Shown here: positions 2-5,455 of the stretch, one piece after another
Layout: every line of letters starts with the position of its first letter
Numbering within the stretch: position 1 is the stretch's first letter
Program-made: the position numbers and the translations under genes
The notes under the pieces: model-generated
The model's database searches: none
The model's input: the letters and a program-made list of their open reading frames with translations, nothing else
Told to the model about the DNA's origin: nothing
DNA from: an uncultured cyanobacterium
GTDB taxonomy: Bacteria > Cyanobacteriota > Cyanobacteriia > Cyanobacteriales > Cyanobacteriaceae
Reading direction: 5' to 3'
Length of the DNA stretch: 64,000 nt
Assembly (NCBI GenBank): GCA_963710605.1
Contig: CAVQBA010000006.1
Span: 256,001 to 320,000, forward strand

Positions 2-478
2 AGTAAAAGATTAAGCGATGAATTTAACCATCGTGGCGAAATCAGAAATAAATATCCCGATTTGATTATTATGTCCATAGGCGTTAACGATACACCCCGT
101 TTAGGACATTTACAAGGAAGAAACCTCACCGATTATCAAGAATTTACTCGACAAATTAATAACTTACTAAATCAAGCACAAAAACTAGCACCAGTTTTAT
201 TTATCGGCATGATACCAGTAGATGAGACTAAAATGCCATTTCTTGATTGTATGTATTTTAATCGTCGAGATCAATATCATTACAAAGAAGTTACTAAAAA
301 TGCTTGTCAAGTTCTAGATATTCCTTATTTGGATATATTTGATTTATGGATGAGTCGAGGCGAAAACTGGTACAAATCGCAAATATCTGCCGATGGATTG
401 CACCCAAATGCTGAAGGATATGCTAATTTATACCAAGAGATTAGTAATTGGCAGTTTCTGCGTAAAATTATTGATTAA
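2..478 (+). CDS. SGNH/GDSL-family lipase/esterase, 5' end outside window
   Basis: Frame is open from position 2; GVND block III and DGLHPN catalytic motif. Confidence 0.85.
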   Translation, partial: SKRLSDEFNHRGEIRNKYPDLIIMSIGVNDTPRLGHLQGRNLTDYQEFTRQINNLLNQAQKLAPVLFIGMIPVDETKMPFLDCMYFNRRDQYHYKEVTKNACQVLDIPYLDIFDLWMSRGENWYKSQISADGLHPNAEGYANLYQEISNWQFLRKIID

Positions 479-589
479 TTGCTTAAAAAACAAGCACAAT
501 TAAAATAACTATGATACTATCTGAAATTAAGTTAAGTAAAAATAGGTAAAGAATCTTAAAATAATTGTGTAGGGGAATATTCACTATTT

Positions 590-1666
590 ATGAAAAATCA
601 AAGATTATCCGCAGATAATTTACCCATGAACAAAAATTATAATCGCCCCCTCAAAATAGGTGTTATTGGGGTAGGTAATATGGGACAACATCATACCAGA
701 GTTTTGAGCTTACTCAAAGACGTTGAGTTAGTAGGAATTGCTGACGTTAACGTCGAAAGAGGTTTGGATTTAGCTGGTAAGTATAGAGTTCGTTTTTTTG
801 AAAATTACCAAGAATTATTACCTCATGTAGAAGCAGTTTGTATTGCCGCCCCAACTAAACTGCATCATCAATTAGGTTTAGAATGTCTTAACGCTGGCGT
901 ACATATTTTAATCGAAAAACCAATTGCCGCTAGTATAGCTGAAGCCGAATCTTTAGTTAACGCCGCCGCTACTGCTAATTGTATTTTACAAGTCGGACAT
1001 ATCGAACGTTTTAATCCAGCTTTCCAAGAATTGAGTAAGGTATTAAAAACAGAAGATATACTTGCACTTGAAGCCCACAGAATGAGCCCCTACTCTAATC
1101 GTGCTAATGATGTTTCTGTGGTTTTAGATTTAATGATTCATGATTTAGATTTACTTTTAGAAGTAGCTAATTCTTATGTAGTCAAAGTTAATGCTACAGG
1201 TAGCCGTTTAGCAAATTCTCAACATCTAGATTATGTTACTGCTACTCTTAATTTTGCTAATGGTATCGTTGCCACTGTCACGGCAAGTAAAGTAACTCAT
1301 CGTAAAATTCGTGGTTTAGCCGCCCATTGTCAAAATAGCCTAACTGAGGCAGATTTCCTTAACAATGAAATTTTAATTCATCGTCATACTACTGCTAATT
1401 ATACTACCGACTATGGACAAATTTGTTATCGTCAAGATGGTTTAATTGAAAAGGTTTACACCAGTAATATTGAACCTTTACACGCTGAATTAGAACATTT
1501 TGTTAGTTGTGTTAGAGGTGGTAATCAACCTTCTGTTGGTGGCGAACAAGCCTTAAAAGCCTTACGTTTAGCTAGTTGTATCGAAAAGTTGGCTTTAGAT
1601 GGTAAAGTGTGGGAAGATTCTTCGATTGATTTACATCAATTAAACGGACACATTGTCAGCATCTAA
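590..1666 (+). CDS. Gfo/Idh/MocA family oxidoreductase
   Basis: GVIGVGNMG Rossmann motif, EKPIA, GHIERFNP, DLMIHD. Confidence 0.92.
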   Translation: MKNQRLSADNLPMNKNYNRPLKIGVIGVGNMGQHHTRVLSLLKDVELVGIADVNVERGLDLAGKYRVRFFENYQELLPHVEAVCIAAPTKLHHQLGLECLNAGVHILIEKPIAASIAEAESLVNAAATANCILQVGHIERFNPAFQELSKVLKTEDILALEAHRMSPYSNRANDVSVVLDLMIHDLDLLLEVANSYVVKVNATGSRLANSQHLDYVTATLNFANGIVATVTASKVTHRKIRGLAAHCQNSLTEADFLNNEILIHRHTTANYTTDYGQICYRQDGLIEKVYTSNIEPLHAELEHFVSCVRGGNQPSVGGEQALKALRLASCIEKLALDGKVWEDSSIDLHQLNGHIVSI

Positions 1667-1667
1667 C

Positions 1668-1724
1668 AGTTAAGAGTTAAGAGTTAAGAGTTAAAAGTTA
1701 AAACCTATAAGCTATAAGCTAAGA
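1668..1724. repeat. Short tandem heptamer repeats (GTTAAGA)n, STRR-like
   Basis: GTTAAGA tandem copies directly after the stop codon, decaying into TAAGCTA units. Confidence 0.85.
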
Positions 1725-1850
1725 GTTATTTATTGTCAATTCTCAATTGTCAATTATTATACATACCATAGTGTTCGTAACGATAATTAACTACTTATTA
1801 CTTATTAGACTTCTTTCATAATTAACAATTAAAGTTAGAAGATAAAAATT

Positions 1851-2129
1851 ATGGAATTAATTACAGGTGAAGAGTTAATTGACTTTGCCACAACTATCAA
1901 ATCAAAATCAGATTTTGAGTATTTTCTTCTATGTTTTGTCGAAGACTATAAAAAAAATCAAAATGAATGGGAGAATAAAAATTTGCTGAGTTATTTGGAA
2001 GGGATGAGATATTTTGTTCCGAGTATGGCTAACTACTATAAAAATATGAATGAAGAGGTTGATGTCGAACATGCAAGTTGGCGTATTGTTGCTGAAGTAT
2101 TAATTGCGGCAACTATTTATGGTAATTAA
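1851..2129 (+). CDS. Small acidic protein resembling DUF7660 / putative immunity-type proteins
   Basis: WEN..L..YLEGM...Y.N...ASW..VAEVL.AA.IY pattern, recognised from memory. Confidence 0.6.
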   Translation: MELITGEELIDFATTIKSKSDFEYFLLCFVEDYKKNQNEWENKNLLSYLEGMRYFVPSMANYYKNMNEEVDVEHASWRIVAEVLIAATIYGN

Positions 2130-2311
2130 ATACGATCGTATCTGTTATCTAGTATGTCAACGGAAAATTAACTAAAGTAGGATTGTTATTTTGTAGTATG
2201 ATAGTCGATCTTATTGGGTGTGTTTTTTAAAATCATTACATATTTAAGATCGTCTTATACAGCATAGAACGCATCACCCTTGCTGTTAAGTACGAATGAT
2301 TTACACTGTGG

Positions 2312-2481
2312 TCGATCGAGATAATATTTGCGTTGGGTTTATCCTCCAAGTCAGAACCTGTTGATAGTGGCTTATGCTAATTATCCTGTTGGTCAGTCTT
2401 TTATTTGGTAGGTGATGTCGATGTCTGTTTGGAGTAGAAGGGTTGACCAGATGTGGTTTACGCTATTATTGAGTTGATTAT
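2312..2481 (-). pseudogene. Repeat B copy 1: decayed fragment of a large protein gene
   Basis: Minus strand reads NQLNNSVNHIWSTLLLQTDIDITYQIKD*PTG*LA*ATI..., homologous to 2641-2800 and 3550-3720. Confidence 0.75.
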
Positions 2482-2508
2482 TGGAAAGATACTCCTTGAT
2501 GGTGATGC

Positions 2509-2640
2509 AAGTACGATCGACATCTCGTAGGTTGGGTTAAGCCTCGAAAAGATTAATATACATTCGATACATAAAATAAAAGCCAAACCCAATAACCGTC
2601 GCCTTAATAAAACTAGAAATAGCGATCGTAACCTAACCCT
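2509..2640 (+). repeat. Repeat A copy 1, containing a REP-like GTAGGTTGGGTT...AAACCCAA element
   Basis: Near-identical to 3417-3549 and 4126-4246; begins AAGTACGATCGACATC. Confidence 0.9.
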
Positions 2641-2800
2641 CGATCGATCGAGACAATTTCTACCTTGGGTTTACCTTCCGAATCGAAATCTGTAATGATG
2701 GCTTCTGCTAGTTGTCCAGAAGGTAAGTCTTTTATTTGATAGGTTATCGATGTTTGTTTGAGGTAGAAAAGTTGACCAGATTTGGTTTACGCTATTATTT
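2641..2800 (-). pseudogene. Repeat B copy 2: fragment of a large protein gene
   Basis: Minus strand reads NNSVNQIWSTFLPQTNID (frameshift) TYQIKDLPSGQLAEAIITDFDSEGKPKVEIVSIDR. Confidence 0.8.
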
Positions 2801-2847
2801 TATCGATCGAGTGTTTGTAGATTTGAATTAGATATTGAAGGAGAAAT

Positions 2848-3372
2848 TTGATGACCAGTATTATTATTGATCCCATTGAGCATAAACGTAGAATGGATAC
2901 TTGGAGTTATATTGACAGAATTTGGGACAGAAGCGATATCGCTCAAGAAGAAATTGTTAATATTTTTGATCAGTTCTTTGCTCCCACTATTACTGTTCGG
3001 GAATTGCGGGAATATTATGCCAGAGGAGAAAGAGAATTCATTGACATCAGTTTGCCCCATAAAGCTAATTTGACGGGAATCAATTTGGCTGGTGCGAATT
3101 TGATTGGTGCCAAGTTTAATCACTCCAATCTGACTGGGGCTAATTTGAACGGGGCTAATTTGAGATATGCTTGGATTAATGGAGTTAACTTCACTGAAGC
3201 TAATTTGGAAGGTGTTGATATTTCCTGGGCTGATGCTACTGGAGCTATTTTAAAAAATGCTAGTTTGCTCAATGCGATTGGACAATTTGGTATTAATTGT
3301 GATGCTCTTTATGAAAATACTATCAGACCTAATGGAAGCATTATCAAAGGACCCTATCGCCCTTTCGGATAA
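2848..3372 (+). CDS. Pentapeptide repeat protein (start may be ATG 2851)
   Basis: YARGEREF leader followed by ANLTG/INLAG/ANLIG/ANLNG repeats; GAAGGAG RBS upstream. Confidence 0.9.
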   Translation: MMTSIIIDPIEHKRRMDTWSYIDRIWDRSDIAQEEIVNIFDQFFAPTITVRELREYYARGEREFIDISLPHKANLTGINLAGANLIGAKFNHSNLTGANLNGANLRYAWINGVNFTEANLEGVDISWADATGAILKNASLLNAIGQFGINCDALYENTIRPNGSIIKGPYRPFG

Positions 3373-3416
3373 TTCTAATAAGTTATTATTCGCTAATAAA
3401 AAAACTGGTAGCCTAT

Positions 3417-3549
3417 AAGTACGATCGACATCTCGTAGAAAAAGGTGAAGCCCCGAAAAGATTAATATACATTCGATACATAAAATAAAAGCCAAACCCA
3501 ACAACCGTCACCTCAGTTAAACTAGAAATAGCGATCGTAACCTAACCCT
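3417..3549 (+). repeat. Repeat A copy 2
   Basis: Direct repeat of 2509-2640. Confidence 0.9.
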
Positions 3550-3720
3550 CGATCGAGACAATTCCTACCTTGGGTTTATTTTGAGAGTCAAAACCTGTGA
3601 TAGTGACTTGTACTAATTGCCCTATTGGTAAGTCTTTTATTTCATCGATTATCGATGTTTGTTTGAGGTAGGAGAGTTAACCAGATTTGATTTACGCTAT
3701 TATTTAGTTGATTAATTATT
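3550..3720 (-). pseudogene. Repeat B copy 3: fragment of a large protein gene
   Basis: Minus strand reads QIINQLNNSVNQIWLTLLPQTNID... then IKDLPIGQLVQVTITGFDSQNKPK; first part is in frame with antisense ORF 3642-4199. Confidence 0.8.
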
Positions 3721-3734
3721 TGAGGATTTGAACT

Positions 3735-4115
3735 ATGACTATGGAAGGTGGAGAATTGATCGCTCGTTATGGGGCGGGAGAAAGAGACTTTGCTGGAGTC
3801 GATTTGAGTGATGCCGATTTGCAAGATGTTCATTTGGATGGGATCAATTTGGAAGGGGCTATCTTGGATGGGGCTAATATGTGTTTTAGCACTTTTTCTC
3901 ATGCTAACTTCAAAAATGCCAGTATGGAAGAAATTGTTGCTCAAGAAACTTTCTTTGGAGATGCCACTTTTGAAAATGCTAATCTCAGAAATGCTATTAT
4001 TGCTGAATGTTGTATTGATAGAGCTAGTTTCAAAGGAGCTAATATTGAAGGTGTCGATGATAGCCTTTTCTACGGGGAGTATATATGGAGCGATGGAAAA
4101 GTCATTAGTGAGTGA
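3735..4115 (+). CDS. Pentapeptide repeat protein
   Basis: ELIARYGAGERDF leader followed by VDLSD/ADLQD/INLEG/ANLRN repeats; GAGGA RBS. Confidence 0.9.
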   Translation: MTMEGGELIARYGAGERDFAGVDLSDADLQDVHLDGINLEGAILDGANMCFSTFSHANFKNASMEEIVAQETFFGDATFENANLRNAIIAECCIDRASFKGANIEGVDDSLFYGEYIWSDGKVISE

Positions 4116-4125
4116 GTAATCTTCA

Positions 4126-4246
4126 AAGTACGATCGACATCTTGTAGGTTGGGTTAAAGCCTCGAAAAGCTCAATATAAATTCGATACATAAAATACAAG
4201 CGAAAGCTAACAACAGTCGCCTCAGTAAAACTAGAAATAGCGATCG
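4126..4246 (+). repeat. Repeat A copy 3
   Basis: Direct repeat of 2509-2628, ending at GCGATCG. Confidence 0.88.
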
Positions 4247-4278
4247 ATCCCCCTAAATCCCCCTTAGAAAGGGGGACT
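4243..4278. repeat. 36-bp REP-like repeat, exact inverted partner of 5516-5551
   Basis: ATCGATCCCCCTAAATCCCCCTTAGAAAGGGGGACT. Confidence 0.9.
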
Positions 4279-4327
4279 CGATCTATTTATGTATCGCTTT
4301 TATAGATTGAATTGGTCTTCTTACTTA

Positions 4328-5455
4328 TTACTCCCACAATCGCCGACGAGACGAACCATTATAGCGGTGATGGCTATCATACAATAACTGCGGTATATCT
4401 AAAGATTCGGGGCATTTAGGTAAACATTCGCCACATTCGGTACATTTGTTTCCTTTTTGTCCCCAAAACCAATGCCCTGCATTTTCAAACATTTGATAAC
4501 GATATTTAGCGTATTCTGTCATCTCCAAACCAACACCAAGATTACGCAGACGTAATATTTCAGATATATTGATATTTTCAGGGCAAGGTAAACATAGATG
4601 ACATTGACTACATCGATCGGTTTGTAAAATCTCGCTCAATGCGGTTTCAATTTTAGCAAAAGTTTGTTGTTCTTCAAAAGTTAACGATCGATCGTCTTCG
4701 GCGACTGATAATGGTACGATAAACTGTTCTGGATTACTTGCCCCTAAACTCAATGTGGTAATACGTCGATCGTTAAGTAAAAAACGGTAATTCAAATACA
4801 TCGGTGTAAAAGGCTGACAAAGACTACTCAATTTAGTTGAAGGTTGATGTAACAACCCTCCTTTGTCTACAGGAGAAATAATAAATACACCCATATCTTT
4901 CTCTTGGGCTAATGTTAAAGCAGGGCTATTTCTTTGCCAAAAATAATAGTAGTGTAAATTAACAAACGAAAATAGATTTGTTTCGATCGTCTTGCTAATT
5001 AAATCTAAATTACCATGAGTAGAAAAACCAATATGTTTAATTTTTCCTAATTGTTGTGCTTTTTTTAAAACATCTAAGCAACTGTTTTTTTGCGTAACAA
5101 TTTCTAAATGTTGTGGCGTATTAATTCCGTGAATAGCAACACAATCAAGATAATCTACTTGTAAATTAGCTAAAGATTCATCTAACCATTTTTGCATTAT
5201 TTGAGCAGAATCAACAGGAGTAAATTTAGTCGTAATAACAATTTTTTCACGAGGAATATTTAACTGTTTTAAAGCCTTACCCAAATATTGTTCACTTTCA
5301 CCGTAAGCCTTTGCAGTTTCTATATGATTGATACCTAATTCTAATGCTTCATTAACGGTGTCTAACAATTGATTATAATTATCACAACAACGCATCAAAC
5401 CAAGAGAGAAAACCGACATTTTTAATTCTGTCTTACCAAAACGACGATATAGCAT
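4328..5455 (-). CDS. Aldo/keto reductase with C-terminal 4Fe-4S dicluster domain
   Basis: MLYRRFGKT start, GINHIETA..YG.SE, HIGFSTHG, CSQCHLCLPCP and CTECGECLPKCP. Confidence 0.92.
   Translation of the reverse strand: MLYRRFGKTELKMSVFSLGLMRCCDNYNQLLDTVNEALELGINHIETAKAYGESEQYLGKALKQLNIPREKIVITTKFTPVDSAQIMQKWLDESLANLQVDYLDCVAIHGINTPQHLEIVTQKNSCLDVLKKAQQLGKIKHIGFSTHGNLDLISKTIETNLFSFVNLHYYYFWQRNSPALTLAQEKDMGVFIISPVDKGGLLHQPSTKLSSLCQPFTPMYLNYRFLLNDRRITTLSLGASNPEQFIVPLSVAEDDRSLTFEEQQTFAKIETALSEILQTDRCSQCHLCLPCPENINISEILRLRNLGVGLEMTEYAKYRYQMFENAGHWFWGQKGNKCTECGECLPKCPESLDIPQLLYDSHHRYNGSSRRRLWE

Follow-up and report, generated by a model that had tools for sequence, protein, structure and literature searches.

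Two pentapeptide-repeat genes of an uncultured cyanobacterium as probable survivors of a subfamily nested antisense in giant exoprotein genes

A stretch of 64,000 nucleotides (nt) from an uncultured cyanobacterium, called the window throughout, contains two small tandem genes for pentapeptide-repeat proteins (PRPs), PRP1 and PRP2, whose codons are chosen such that the opposite strand can be read almost without a stop. We conclude, with a probability of about 0.88, that PRP1 and PRP2 are solo survivors of a PRP subfamily nested antisense in giant exoprotein genes, and that their codon signature was inherited from that arrangement. The subfamily comprises small acidic PRPs that many cyanobacteria encode wholly within a giant, cysteine-free, multi-domain exoprotein gene. 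They lie antisense to that gene and in codon register with it, flanked in the majority of loci by an Endonuclease_NS domain on one side and a conserved HExxH-type domain on the other. One strand would encode a folded PRP; the other would supply the giant protein with a linker that is rich in Ser, Ile, Gln and Thr and probably disordered. As this linker frame has to remain free of stops, the PRP would have to do without TTA, CTA and TCA, leaving leucine to be written as TTG, and the cysteine avoidance of the host protein would make the PRP shun ACA and GCA as well. In the window's genome most host genes would have decayed and left the two window PRPs solo, each with some 60–70 frameshifted host codons upstream (repeat B) and a second repeat downstream (repeat A), and with an inherited dual-coding signature just starting to erode. 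Their odd codons and open antisense frames would on this account be a legacy of former dual coding. The codon statistics, the nesting in other genomes and the selection pattern are observed; where the host gene is intact, we infer that both readings are translated.

Antisense stops in the pentapeptide genes of the window's genome

PRP1 and PRP2 (Table 1) scored 71.1 and 58.6 bits against Pfam PF00805, exceeding its gathering cut-off of 20.2 bits. By sequence comparison, PRP2 resembled cyanobacterial PRPs with a solved right-handed quadrilateral beta-helix, namely Np275/Np276 (2J8K, E = 2e-17), HetL/All3740 (3DU1, E = 3e-14) and Alr5209 (6OMX, E = 5e-8), with which the window PRPs share an N-terminal ...RYxxGERDF-type cap region. 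They differ from these proteins in falling far under the corresponding NCBIfam cut-offs, the two genes scoring 52.3 and 62.4 bits against the Alr5209 model NF052603 (cut-off 125) and 50.8 and 48.5 bits against the HetL model NF047416 (cut-off 260).

The 13 leucine codons of PRP1 are nine TTG and one each of TTA, CTT, CTC and CTG, while the eight of PRP2 are six TTG, one CTT and one CTC; over both genes TTG accounts for 15 of 21 leucines, TTA for one and CTA for none. TCA is absent from the eight serine codons of each gene (0/16 in total). The recount agrees with a preliminary description of this DNA (15 TTG and one TTA or CTA among 21 leucines, no TCA), which had proposed that a larger gene on the minus strand holds, or once held, the pentapeptide genes within it in antisense orientation. 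Counting frames bore out its further claim that the codon-aligned antisense frame is open over PRP2 and has one stop, at 3250, in PRP1. In PRP1 the two other antisense frames are interrupted by 7 and 26 stops, in PRP2 by 5 and 16. The open frame over PRP2 exists as described: it is 185 codons long, extends past the gene on both sides and runs into repeat B. With the encoded proteins fixed and codons drawn as in the host, PRP1 should contain 10.2 antisense stops (1 observed) and PRP2 6.9 (0 observed), and the probability of at most one antisense stop over both genes is 1.1e-10. The antisense open reading frames (ORFs) across PRP1 and PRP2 gave no Pfam match. G+C content at third codon positions (GC3) is 31% in the two genes and 23% in the genome. 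A longest-ORF rule selects the antisense ORF (185 amino acids, aa) instead of the true PRP2 (126 aa); the exact PRP2 protein is absent from a collection of 15 billion proteins, so that public annotation may miss it.

The window's genome comprises 3.93 Mb at 33% G+C, and its ORFs of at least 250 aa provided the host codon background, in which leucine is 58% TTA, 13% TTG and 9% CTA, and serine 18% TCA. When 2882 ORFs were ranked by the ratio of observed to expected antisense stops, the lowest 15 were all pentapeptide ORFs, PRP1 included; in this ranking the greedy ORF caller had replaced PRP2 by its longer antisense ORF. A Pfam scan of the genome yielded a table of 50 PRP ORFs, two of which, under 90 aa, were set aside. 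Comparison among the pentapeptide genes of the genome, as suggested in the preliminary description, separated a class of 22 small PRP genes (99–266 aa, most starting ...EELLRRYxAGERDF) with 15 antisense stops against 302 expected from a class of 26 with host-like codons and observed/expected ratios of 0.47–1.24. In the 22-gene class, TTA makes up 3% of leucine codons (host 58%) and TTG 58%, TCA makes up 0% of serine codons (host 18%), and ATA, GTA, ACA and GCA are likewise low. The fractions of AAA, GAA and CAA are the host's while TTA and TTG are inverted, which excludes a general shift in G+C or third-position composition. Past each gene end, the antisense frame stays open for a median of 20–21 codons in this class, compared with 6.5–7 in the other. 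A dual-coding origin would account for one gene class of this AT-rich genome having the most deviant codon use among 2882 ORFs. Mutagenesis of the diversity-generating retroelement type, tRNA-specific codon avoidance and a general A3 or GC shift were considered and do not fit the codon pattern. Integron-like cassettes were a further idea that was set aside.

Elsewhere in the same genome, C4:1402797-1409942 is a block of ORFs with atypical codons (antisense-stop ratio 0.11–0.44), including a transposase-like ORF, and may be foreign DNA or contamination.

Nested gene pairs in other cyanobacteria and substitution patterns in the two readings

The codon-aligned antisense frame of the PRP at C7:498661-499164 of the window's genome runs 271 residues beyond the PRP start, its extension reading ...NQLNNSVNHIWSTLLPQTNIDITYEIKDLPSGQLAEATITGFD...DHDANGVGWFID...LHETAHLYGF... 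with an HExxH motif, and C7:497848-499356 is a 503-codon open frame holding the antisense PRP plus a conserved domain. Since this antisense frame continues into the conserved domain, repeat B is the beginning of the minus-strand host coding sequence. No Pfam family matched the domain at E <= 0.1, and its score against the NCBIfam metalloprotease model NF038122 (domain 17.4 bits, E = 0.0037) lies below the cut-off of 80; the HExxH motif is invariant in the domain alignment (A1). A protein collection contained 191 relatives of the domain at E <= 1e-3, the best 120 all below 1e-45, with source names that include PKD, VCBS, Ig-like, cadherin-like and DNA/RNA non-specific endonuclease. Twenty of these were read. 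Many have, just before the domain, a segment that resembles the reverse complement of a PRP and is marked by an xSQIS-type five-residue periodicity and by ...KVSFSSSIxSQQFLSxH; in several an endonuclease domain precedes this segment within a single ORF.

Other cyanobacteria, one genome per species, were surveyed with alignment A1 as the query. The best 80 loci of 136 relatives were kept, coming from Xenococcus, Waterburya, Crocosphaera, Calothrix, Nostoc, Tolypothrix, Chamaesiphon, Acaryochloris, Leptolyngbya, Thermosynechococcaceae and others, and nested PRPs were searched for with a hidden Markov model (HMM) built on the small PRPs of the window's genome. An opposite-strand PRP ORF abuts the domain in 73 of the 80 loci. 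Two of these (L065 and L070) were dropped by a 250-nt distance rule and 71 were analysed, among them L054, which spans only 32 codons at a contig edge. In 71 of 71 the PRP is codon-aligned with the domain frame and free of TTA, CTA and TCA. The open frame on the domain strand spans the whole PRP in 70 of 71 and often continues for more than 800 codons, to the locus edge. Over the 60 loci with enough flanking sequence, no antisense stop was observed where the codons of the long-frame flanks predict 606; TTA and CTA make up a median of 38% of leucine codons in those flanks. The nested PRPs are 120–318 codons long. An endonuclease domain lies upstream of the PRP in the same open frame in 50 of the 80 loci and in another frame in two; 19 loci have a PRP with no endonuclease domain in view, L065 and L070 have both elements although the distance rule missed them, and seven loci have neither.

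Both ways in which the preliminary description could have failed were covered by this survey. The check proposed there came out as predicted: the translation of 3642-4199 on the minus strand has matches in 26 loci of other cyanobacteria, on the long frame where the linker meets the domain (best L011, E = 5e-16), and these frames carry an antisense PRP ORF at that position; long minus-strand homologues that contain the segment thus exist. Nor do antisense stops occur at their expected frequency in the homologues, and the AAA/AAG, GAA/GAG and CAA/CAG ratios are host-like with TTA/TTG inverted, which excludes a general donor codon bias. Its proposal of nesting is supported in the past tense for the window copies and in the present tense for their homologues elsewhere. 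PRP1 has its nearest nested homologue at locus L078, with 48% identity over 166 aa. An exact look-up of eight nested PRPs from other genomes in the 15-billion-protein collection found seven absent, some of which alternative start codons could hide; the eighth is WP_375340499.1.

At locus L005, the long frame 25-3960 is faced by three head-to-tail antisense PRP ORFs on the minus strand (1519-2982), which seem to be a triple nested array between the endonuclease and HExxH domains in one long frame. The last of the three alone is in the analysed set.

In four long frames scanned with Pfam, the order is Endonuclease_NS, PRP-antisense segment, HExxH domain, Big_9/cadherin-like and five to eight PKD domains and, in one of the four, Calx-beta. 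Cysteine is absent from all 18,913 residues that make up the endonuclease and HExxH parts of the host proteins in 41 loci (L006, L014, L016 and L066 included). At locus L085 (AP018293.1:40000-56000), on plasmid3 of Calothrix sp. NIES-4105, annotation gives the host gene as a single coding sequence of 11,597 aa, named 'peptidase S8/S53', adjoining genes for a 'toxin secretion ABC transporter' and a 'filamentous hemagglutinin outer membrane protein'; the PLSDB gene table, which is incomplete, lists no PRP inside it. The host protein is probably secreted.

Selection on the two readings was compared in 46 pairs aligned on the PRP (PRP protein identity 55–98%). Differences at PRP codon positions 1, 2 and 3 numbered 2023, 1437 and 3172, and of 4366 changed codons 1828 (42%) left the PRP residue unchanged, against 557 (13%) that were silent in the other reading. 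In the 42 pairs formed by loci of other genomes only, per-site differences at the three positions were 0.27, 0.18 and 0.41 in the PRP region, resembling those of the single-coded flanks in their own frame (0.29, 0.22 and 0.46; 0.25, 0.16 and 0.44). Because choosing pairs by the PRP favours the PRP, the count was repeated on 143 pairs selected and aligned on the linker reading. Differences at long-frame positions 1, 2 and 3 were then 0.44, 0.28 and 0.41, which is atypical for coding sequence. Judged from the codon-position and synonymous patterns in the PRP frame, the linker-aligned repeat included, amino-acid selection is mainly on the PRP reading. In 59 of 60 loci the nested PRP opens with ATG, in the remaining one with GTG, and a Shine-Dalgarno core (GGAG/GAGG/AGGA) lies 5–16 nt 5' of the start in 45 of 70, compared with 12.5% of control positions. 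A near-invariant histidine of the long protein (alignment A4) is the reverse complement of the PRP start ATG.

The long-frame reading appears, on these sequence comparisons, to be selected beyond mere openness, and then on composition only: stops are absent and cysteine nearly so. Codons that read as cysteine on the other strand are depleted in the nested PRPs (ACA 17 vs 146 expected, GCA 19 vs 370; 36 vs 516 in total), and those that read as tyrosine are reduced (ATA 44 vs 98 expected, GTA 30 vs 106). A cysteine-free host protein together with this depletion explains the wider codon avoidance in the window genes and ties the segment to the host, a second signature independent of the stops. 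The linker segment itself is rich in Ser, Ile, Gln and Thr. An AlphaFold2 model from a 24-row alignment gave it no secondary structure (mean predicted local distance difference test score, pLDDT, 43), from which the linker is predicted to be disordered, as it probably is.

Host-gene remnants and competing explanations

In all three window copies of repeat B (Table 1), the host-gene remnant amounts to at most 70 domain residues in two frames. By tblastn copy 3 falls into two pieces in different frames, covering domain residues 1-27 and 19-62, and a 2-nt gap is common to copies 2 and 3. The 22 blastn matches of repeat B in the genome mostly terminate at a PRP start codon. About 60–70 host-gene codons are left upstream of each window PRP before repeat A truncates the sequence. 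This dispersed short repeat is GTAGGTTGGGTT...AAACCCAAC-like and has 36 blastn matches in the genome. Repeat A stands after PRP stop codons, with many further copies distant from PRPs, and its position coincides with the end point of the former host gene. No Rfam match at E <= 0.1 was found in window positions 1700-4400, repeat A included, and folding z-scores of -0.9, +0.2 and -2.2 show no structure consistent among its copies. A promoter and terminator scan of 2250-4350 was uninformative, with 9 promoter-like sites against 6.5 +/- 2.5 in shuffled sequence; one such site (2772-2801) lies inside repeat B, upstream of PRP1.

Table 1. Features of the PRP1/PRP2 region, in window coordinates, with the PRP ORFs of locus L005 in coordinates of that locus.
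Feature	Position	Strand	Description
PRP1	2851..3372	+	173 aa pentapeptide-repeat gene with N-terminal extension; probably a now solo member of the antisense-nested subfamily
PRP1 alternative start	2848	+	TTG
Lone TTA codon of PRP1	3250..3252	+	sole stop (TAA) of the codon-aligned antisense frame
PRP2	3735..4115	+	126 aa pentapeptide-repeat gene; N-terminal ...ELIARYGAGERDF motif
Open codon-aligned antisense frame across PRP2	3642..4199	-	probable relic of the former host gene's linker segment
Repeat B copy 1	2299..2480	-	domain residues 7-66, frameshifted; no PRP gene attached
Repeat B copy 2	2628..2830	-	frameshifted remnant of host-gene domain residues 1-70; upstream of PRP1
Repeat B copy 3	3548..3735	-	first ~62 codons of the HExxH-type domain (...NQLNNSVNQIW...), frameshifted; PRP2 upstream region on +
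Repeat A copy 1	2509..2647	not assigned	dispersed short repeat
Repeat A copy 2	3417..3556	not assigned	directly 3' of PRP1
Repeat A copy 3	4126..4265	not assigned	directly 3' of PRP2
L005 PRP ORF	1519-2013	-	E about 1e-36 to the subfamily HMM
L005 PRP ORF	2017-2523	-	E about 1e-36 to the subfamily HMM
L005 PRP ORF	2527-2982	-	E about 1e-36 to the subfamily HMM

Elsewhere in the window's genome the domain is near full length in an 817-codon frame (C6:181722-184172), which also holds a nested PRP-like ORF, and it persists in the 503-codon C7 frame; the remaining copies are frameshifted or consist of repeat B only. The longest PRP-antisense frame of the genome has no ATG upstream of the conserved domain. 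No intact host gene spanning the window PRPs was encountered, the trace ending after at most 70 domain residues in two frames, at repeat A. Because the host gene is frameshifted and truncated, we infer that the window copies are relics. At least one antisense stop is present in 11 of the 22 small PRPs of this genome, PRP1 included, and in none of the 71 nested ones (Fisher P = 1e-8), and we take the TTA at 3250-3252 of PRP1 for an early sign that the antisense frame is decaying now that the host gene is lost. A DNA search for the cassette array in 20 relatives of the window's genome gave weak repeat-level matches only, so that orthologous solo copies are unusable for dating the decay. When the same 20 were searched at the protein level for the host domain, remnants turned up in the same-genus genome alone, whose completeness is 67%.

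Several observations weigh against a nested origin followed by decay. Of the 13,719 changed codons in the linker-aligned comparison, 2789 were silent in the linker and 3399 in the PRP, and by this count the two readings look almost equally constrained. The 19 of 71 loci without an upstream endonuclease domain mean that host architecture varies, and as the loci were picked by the conserved domain, the survey is silent on PRPs of the subfamily outside such genes. In the solo PRPs of the window's genome the signature is still very strong. Two diverged tandem copies (C6:565282 and C6:566065) differ at 38 third positions and neither contains an antisense stop, so that either the decay is recent or a constraint persists that lies outside this account. 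No public sequencing run, RNA included, was listed as containing window positions 2300-4300.

That dual coding is still active in the window, with minus-strand ORFs such as 3642-4199 translated and functional today, appears improbable. It would suit the 185 open codons that run beyond PRP2 at both ends, the 11 of 22 solo PRPs that have no antisense stop and the diverged tandem pair that lacks any. It does not suit a host remnant that is frameshifted and cut after about 60–70 codons in all three window copies, nor the antisense stop of PRP1, the lack of a Pfam match for the antisense ORFs, the predicted disorder of the equivalent segment in intact genes, or the missing ATG upstream of the conserved domain in the genome's longest such frame. 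Codon usage brought by a foreign donor on horizontally acquired cassettes, the open antisense frame being a side effect, is very improbable. The raised GC3 (31% vs 23%) and the departure of GGA, CCC, AGC and TTC from host usage would be expected from such a donor, and the host domain, unseen with the query used in 19 of the 20 relatives, fits either acquisition or patchy retention. A donor would however have had to leave AAA, GAA and CAA host-like while inverting TTA and TTG, and the 71 loci, which are of varied composition, have zero TTA, CTA and TCA next to flanks with a median of 38% TTA and CTA.

We give as little credence to the idea that the PRP reading is merely the mirror image of a repetitive linker and not a genuine gene. 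An xSQIS-like five-residue period in the linker necessarily mirrors A(D/N)LXX, and the absence of seven of eight nested PRPs from the protein collection is in line with it; yet the substitution pattern favours the PRP frame, the ATG start, Shine-Dalgarno motif and N- and C-terminal PRP motifs are conserved, the PRP ORFs have stayed intact in the window's genome after destruction of the long genes, and the matches to Pfam and to solved PRP structures are strong. Hardly any weight falls on the last candidate, by which TTG was inherited through amplification of a 15-nt unit (GCT AAT TTG ...) and reflects repeat history instead of selection. PRP1 and PRP2 do contain direct 15-nt periodic repeats, but so do the 26 other PRP genes, which have host-like TTA, and the bias extends to the non-repeat N-terminal parts and to Ser, Thr and Ala codons.

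Relation to known systems and a possible function

Antisense overlap between long genes in bacteria is a matter of dispute, most proposals being young, poorly conserved and based on a single organism. The comparative data alone make a clean case here, with 71 loci from many cyanobacterial lineages and 0 against 606 antisense stops. Embedded antisense genes have been proposed in E. coli (bioRxiv 10.1101/2020.11.18.388249). The PRP loci resemble such genes in that proteins would be encoded on both strands of one stretch of DNA, the embedded gene lying wholly inside the larger one. They differ in that the embedded PRP belongs to an old, structurally known family and, at 120–318 codons, recurs in 71 loci, and in that the main amino-acid constraint appears to rest on the embedded PRP, with the host reading serving as a linker. 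Pentapeptide genes nested antisense in larger genes were not described in the literature covered, and a term search for 'antisense' returned nothing from the text of a PRP review (PMC8145042) and of the Alr5209 paper (PMC7337050). The Nostoc 7120 proteogenomics study (PMC8557916) lists novel opposite-strand genes in tables that may bear on expression. Annotation seems to have a blind spot for the arrangement: seven of eight nested PRPs are missing from the protein collection, and the annotated plasmid of L085 displays the 11,597-aa host gene alone, within the limits of the incomplete PLSDB table. The pairs offer a test system for the sharing of one sequence by two proteins, and they point to a possible connection of pentapeptide proteins with secreted nucleases.

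Some bacterial nucleases are paired with a cognate intracellular inhibitor or immunity protein, as in NucA/NuiA of Anabaena, colicin DNase/Im and CdiA-CT/CdiI. In likeness to these pairs, an acidic PRP is encoded near the Endonuclease_NS domain of a protein that is probably secreted. All nested PRPs examined for charge are acidic (isoelectric point below 6 in 70 of 70, median 4.7) and, unlike the host, contain cysteine; the PRP is encoded within about 20–120 codons of the endonuclease domain, and 54 of 54 loci with that domain also have a PRP, next to the 19 with a PRP and no endonuclease domain in view. The likeness ends at co-variation: PRP identity does not track endonuclease identity (Spearman rho 0.10 over 820 non-independent pairs from 41 loci), and its correlation with downstream-domain identity in the same pairs (rho 0.16) is not weaker. 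In the window's genome no nuclease domain adjoining a PRP was encountered, the only PF01223 (Endonuclease_NS) match being solitary at C5:276186-276791. PRPs that mimic DNA are known (MfpA, Qnr), and PRP genes of the YjbI type have been noted beside His-Me finger nuclease toxins (PMC5714182). An acidic PRP, an adjoining nuclease domain and the precedent of DNA-mimic PRPs together make an inhibitor or immunity role for the nested PRP a reasonable guess and a working idea, one that the co-variation does not support.

Polymorphic toxin loci can carry orphan immunity genes or cassette arrays. The small genes of the window are similarly tandem, each following a conserved fragment of a large exoprotein; the fragments differ from those of toxin arrays in stemming from the opposite-strand region beside the small gene and not from the toxin tip. 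The full proposition that both strands are translated in living cyanobacteria, that the nested acidic PRP acts as an intracellular DNA-mimic inhibitor of the endonuclease domain that the other strand of the giant gene encodes a few dozen codons off, and that the window PRPs are orphan immunity genes is one we hold to be doubtful. Were it true, toxin and antidote would be physically unable to be inherited apart, fully complementary transcripts would couple their expression, and the tandem solo PRPs of the window would be orphan immunity genes retained after loss of the nuclease genes.

Two minor features lie close by. Directly upstream of the cassette array is a DUF7660 gene of 92 aa (window 1851-2129, plus strand; PF24693, E = 4e-23), and a TAAGAGT-like short tandem run occupies window 1664-1728, 3' of the stop of the upstream oxidoreductase-like ORF.

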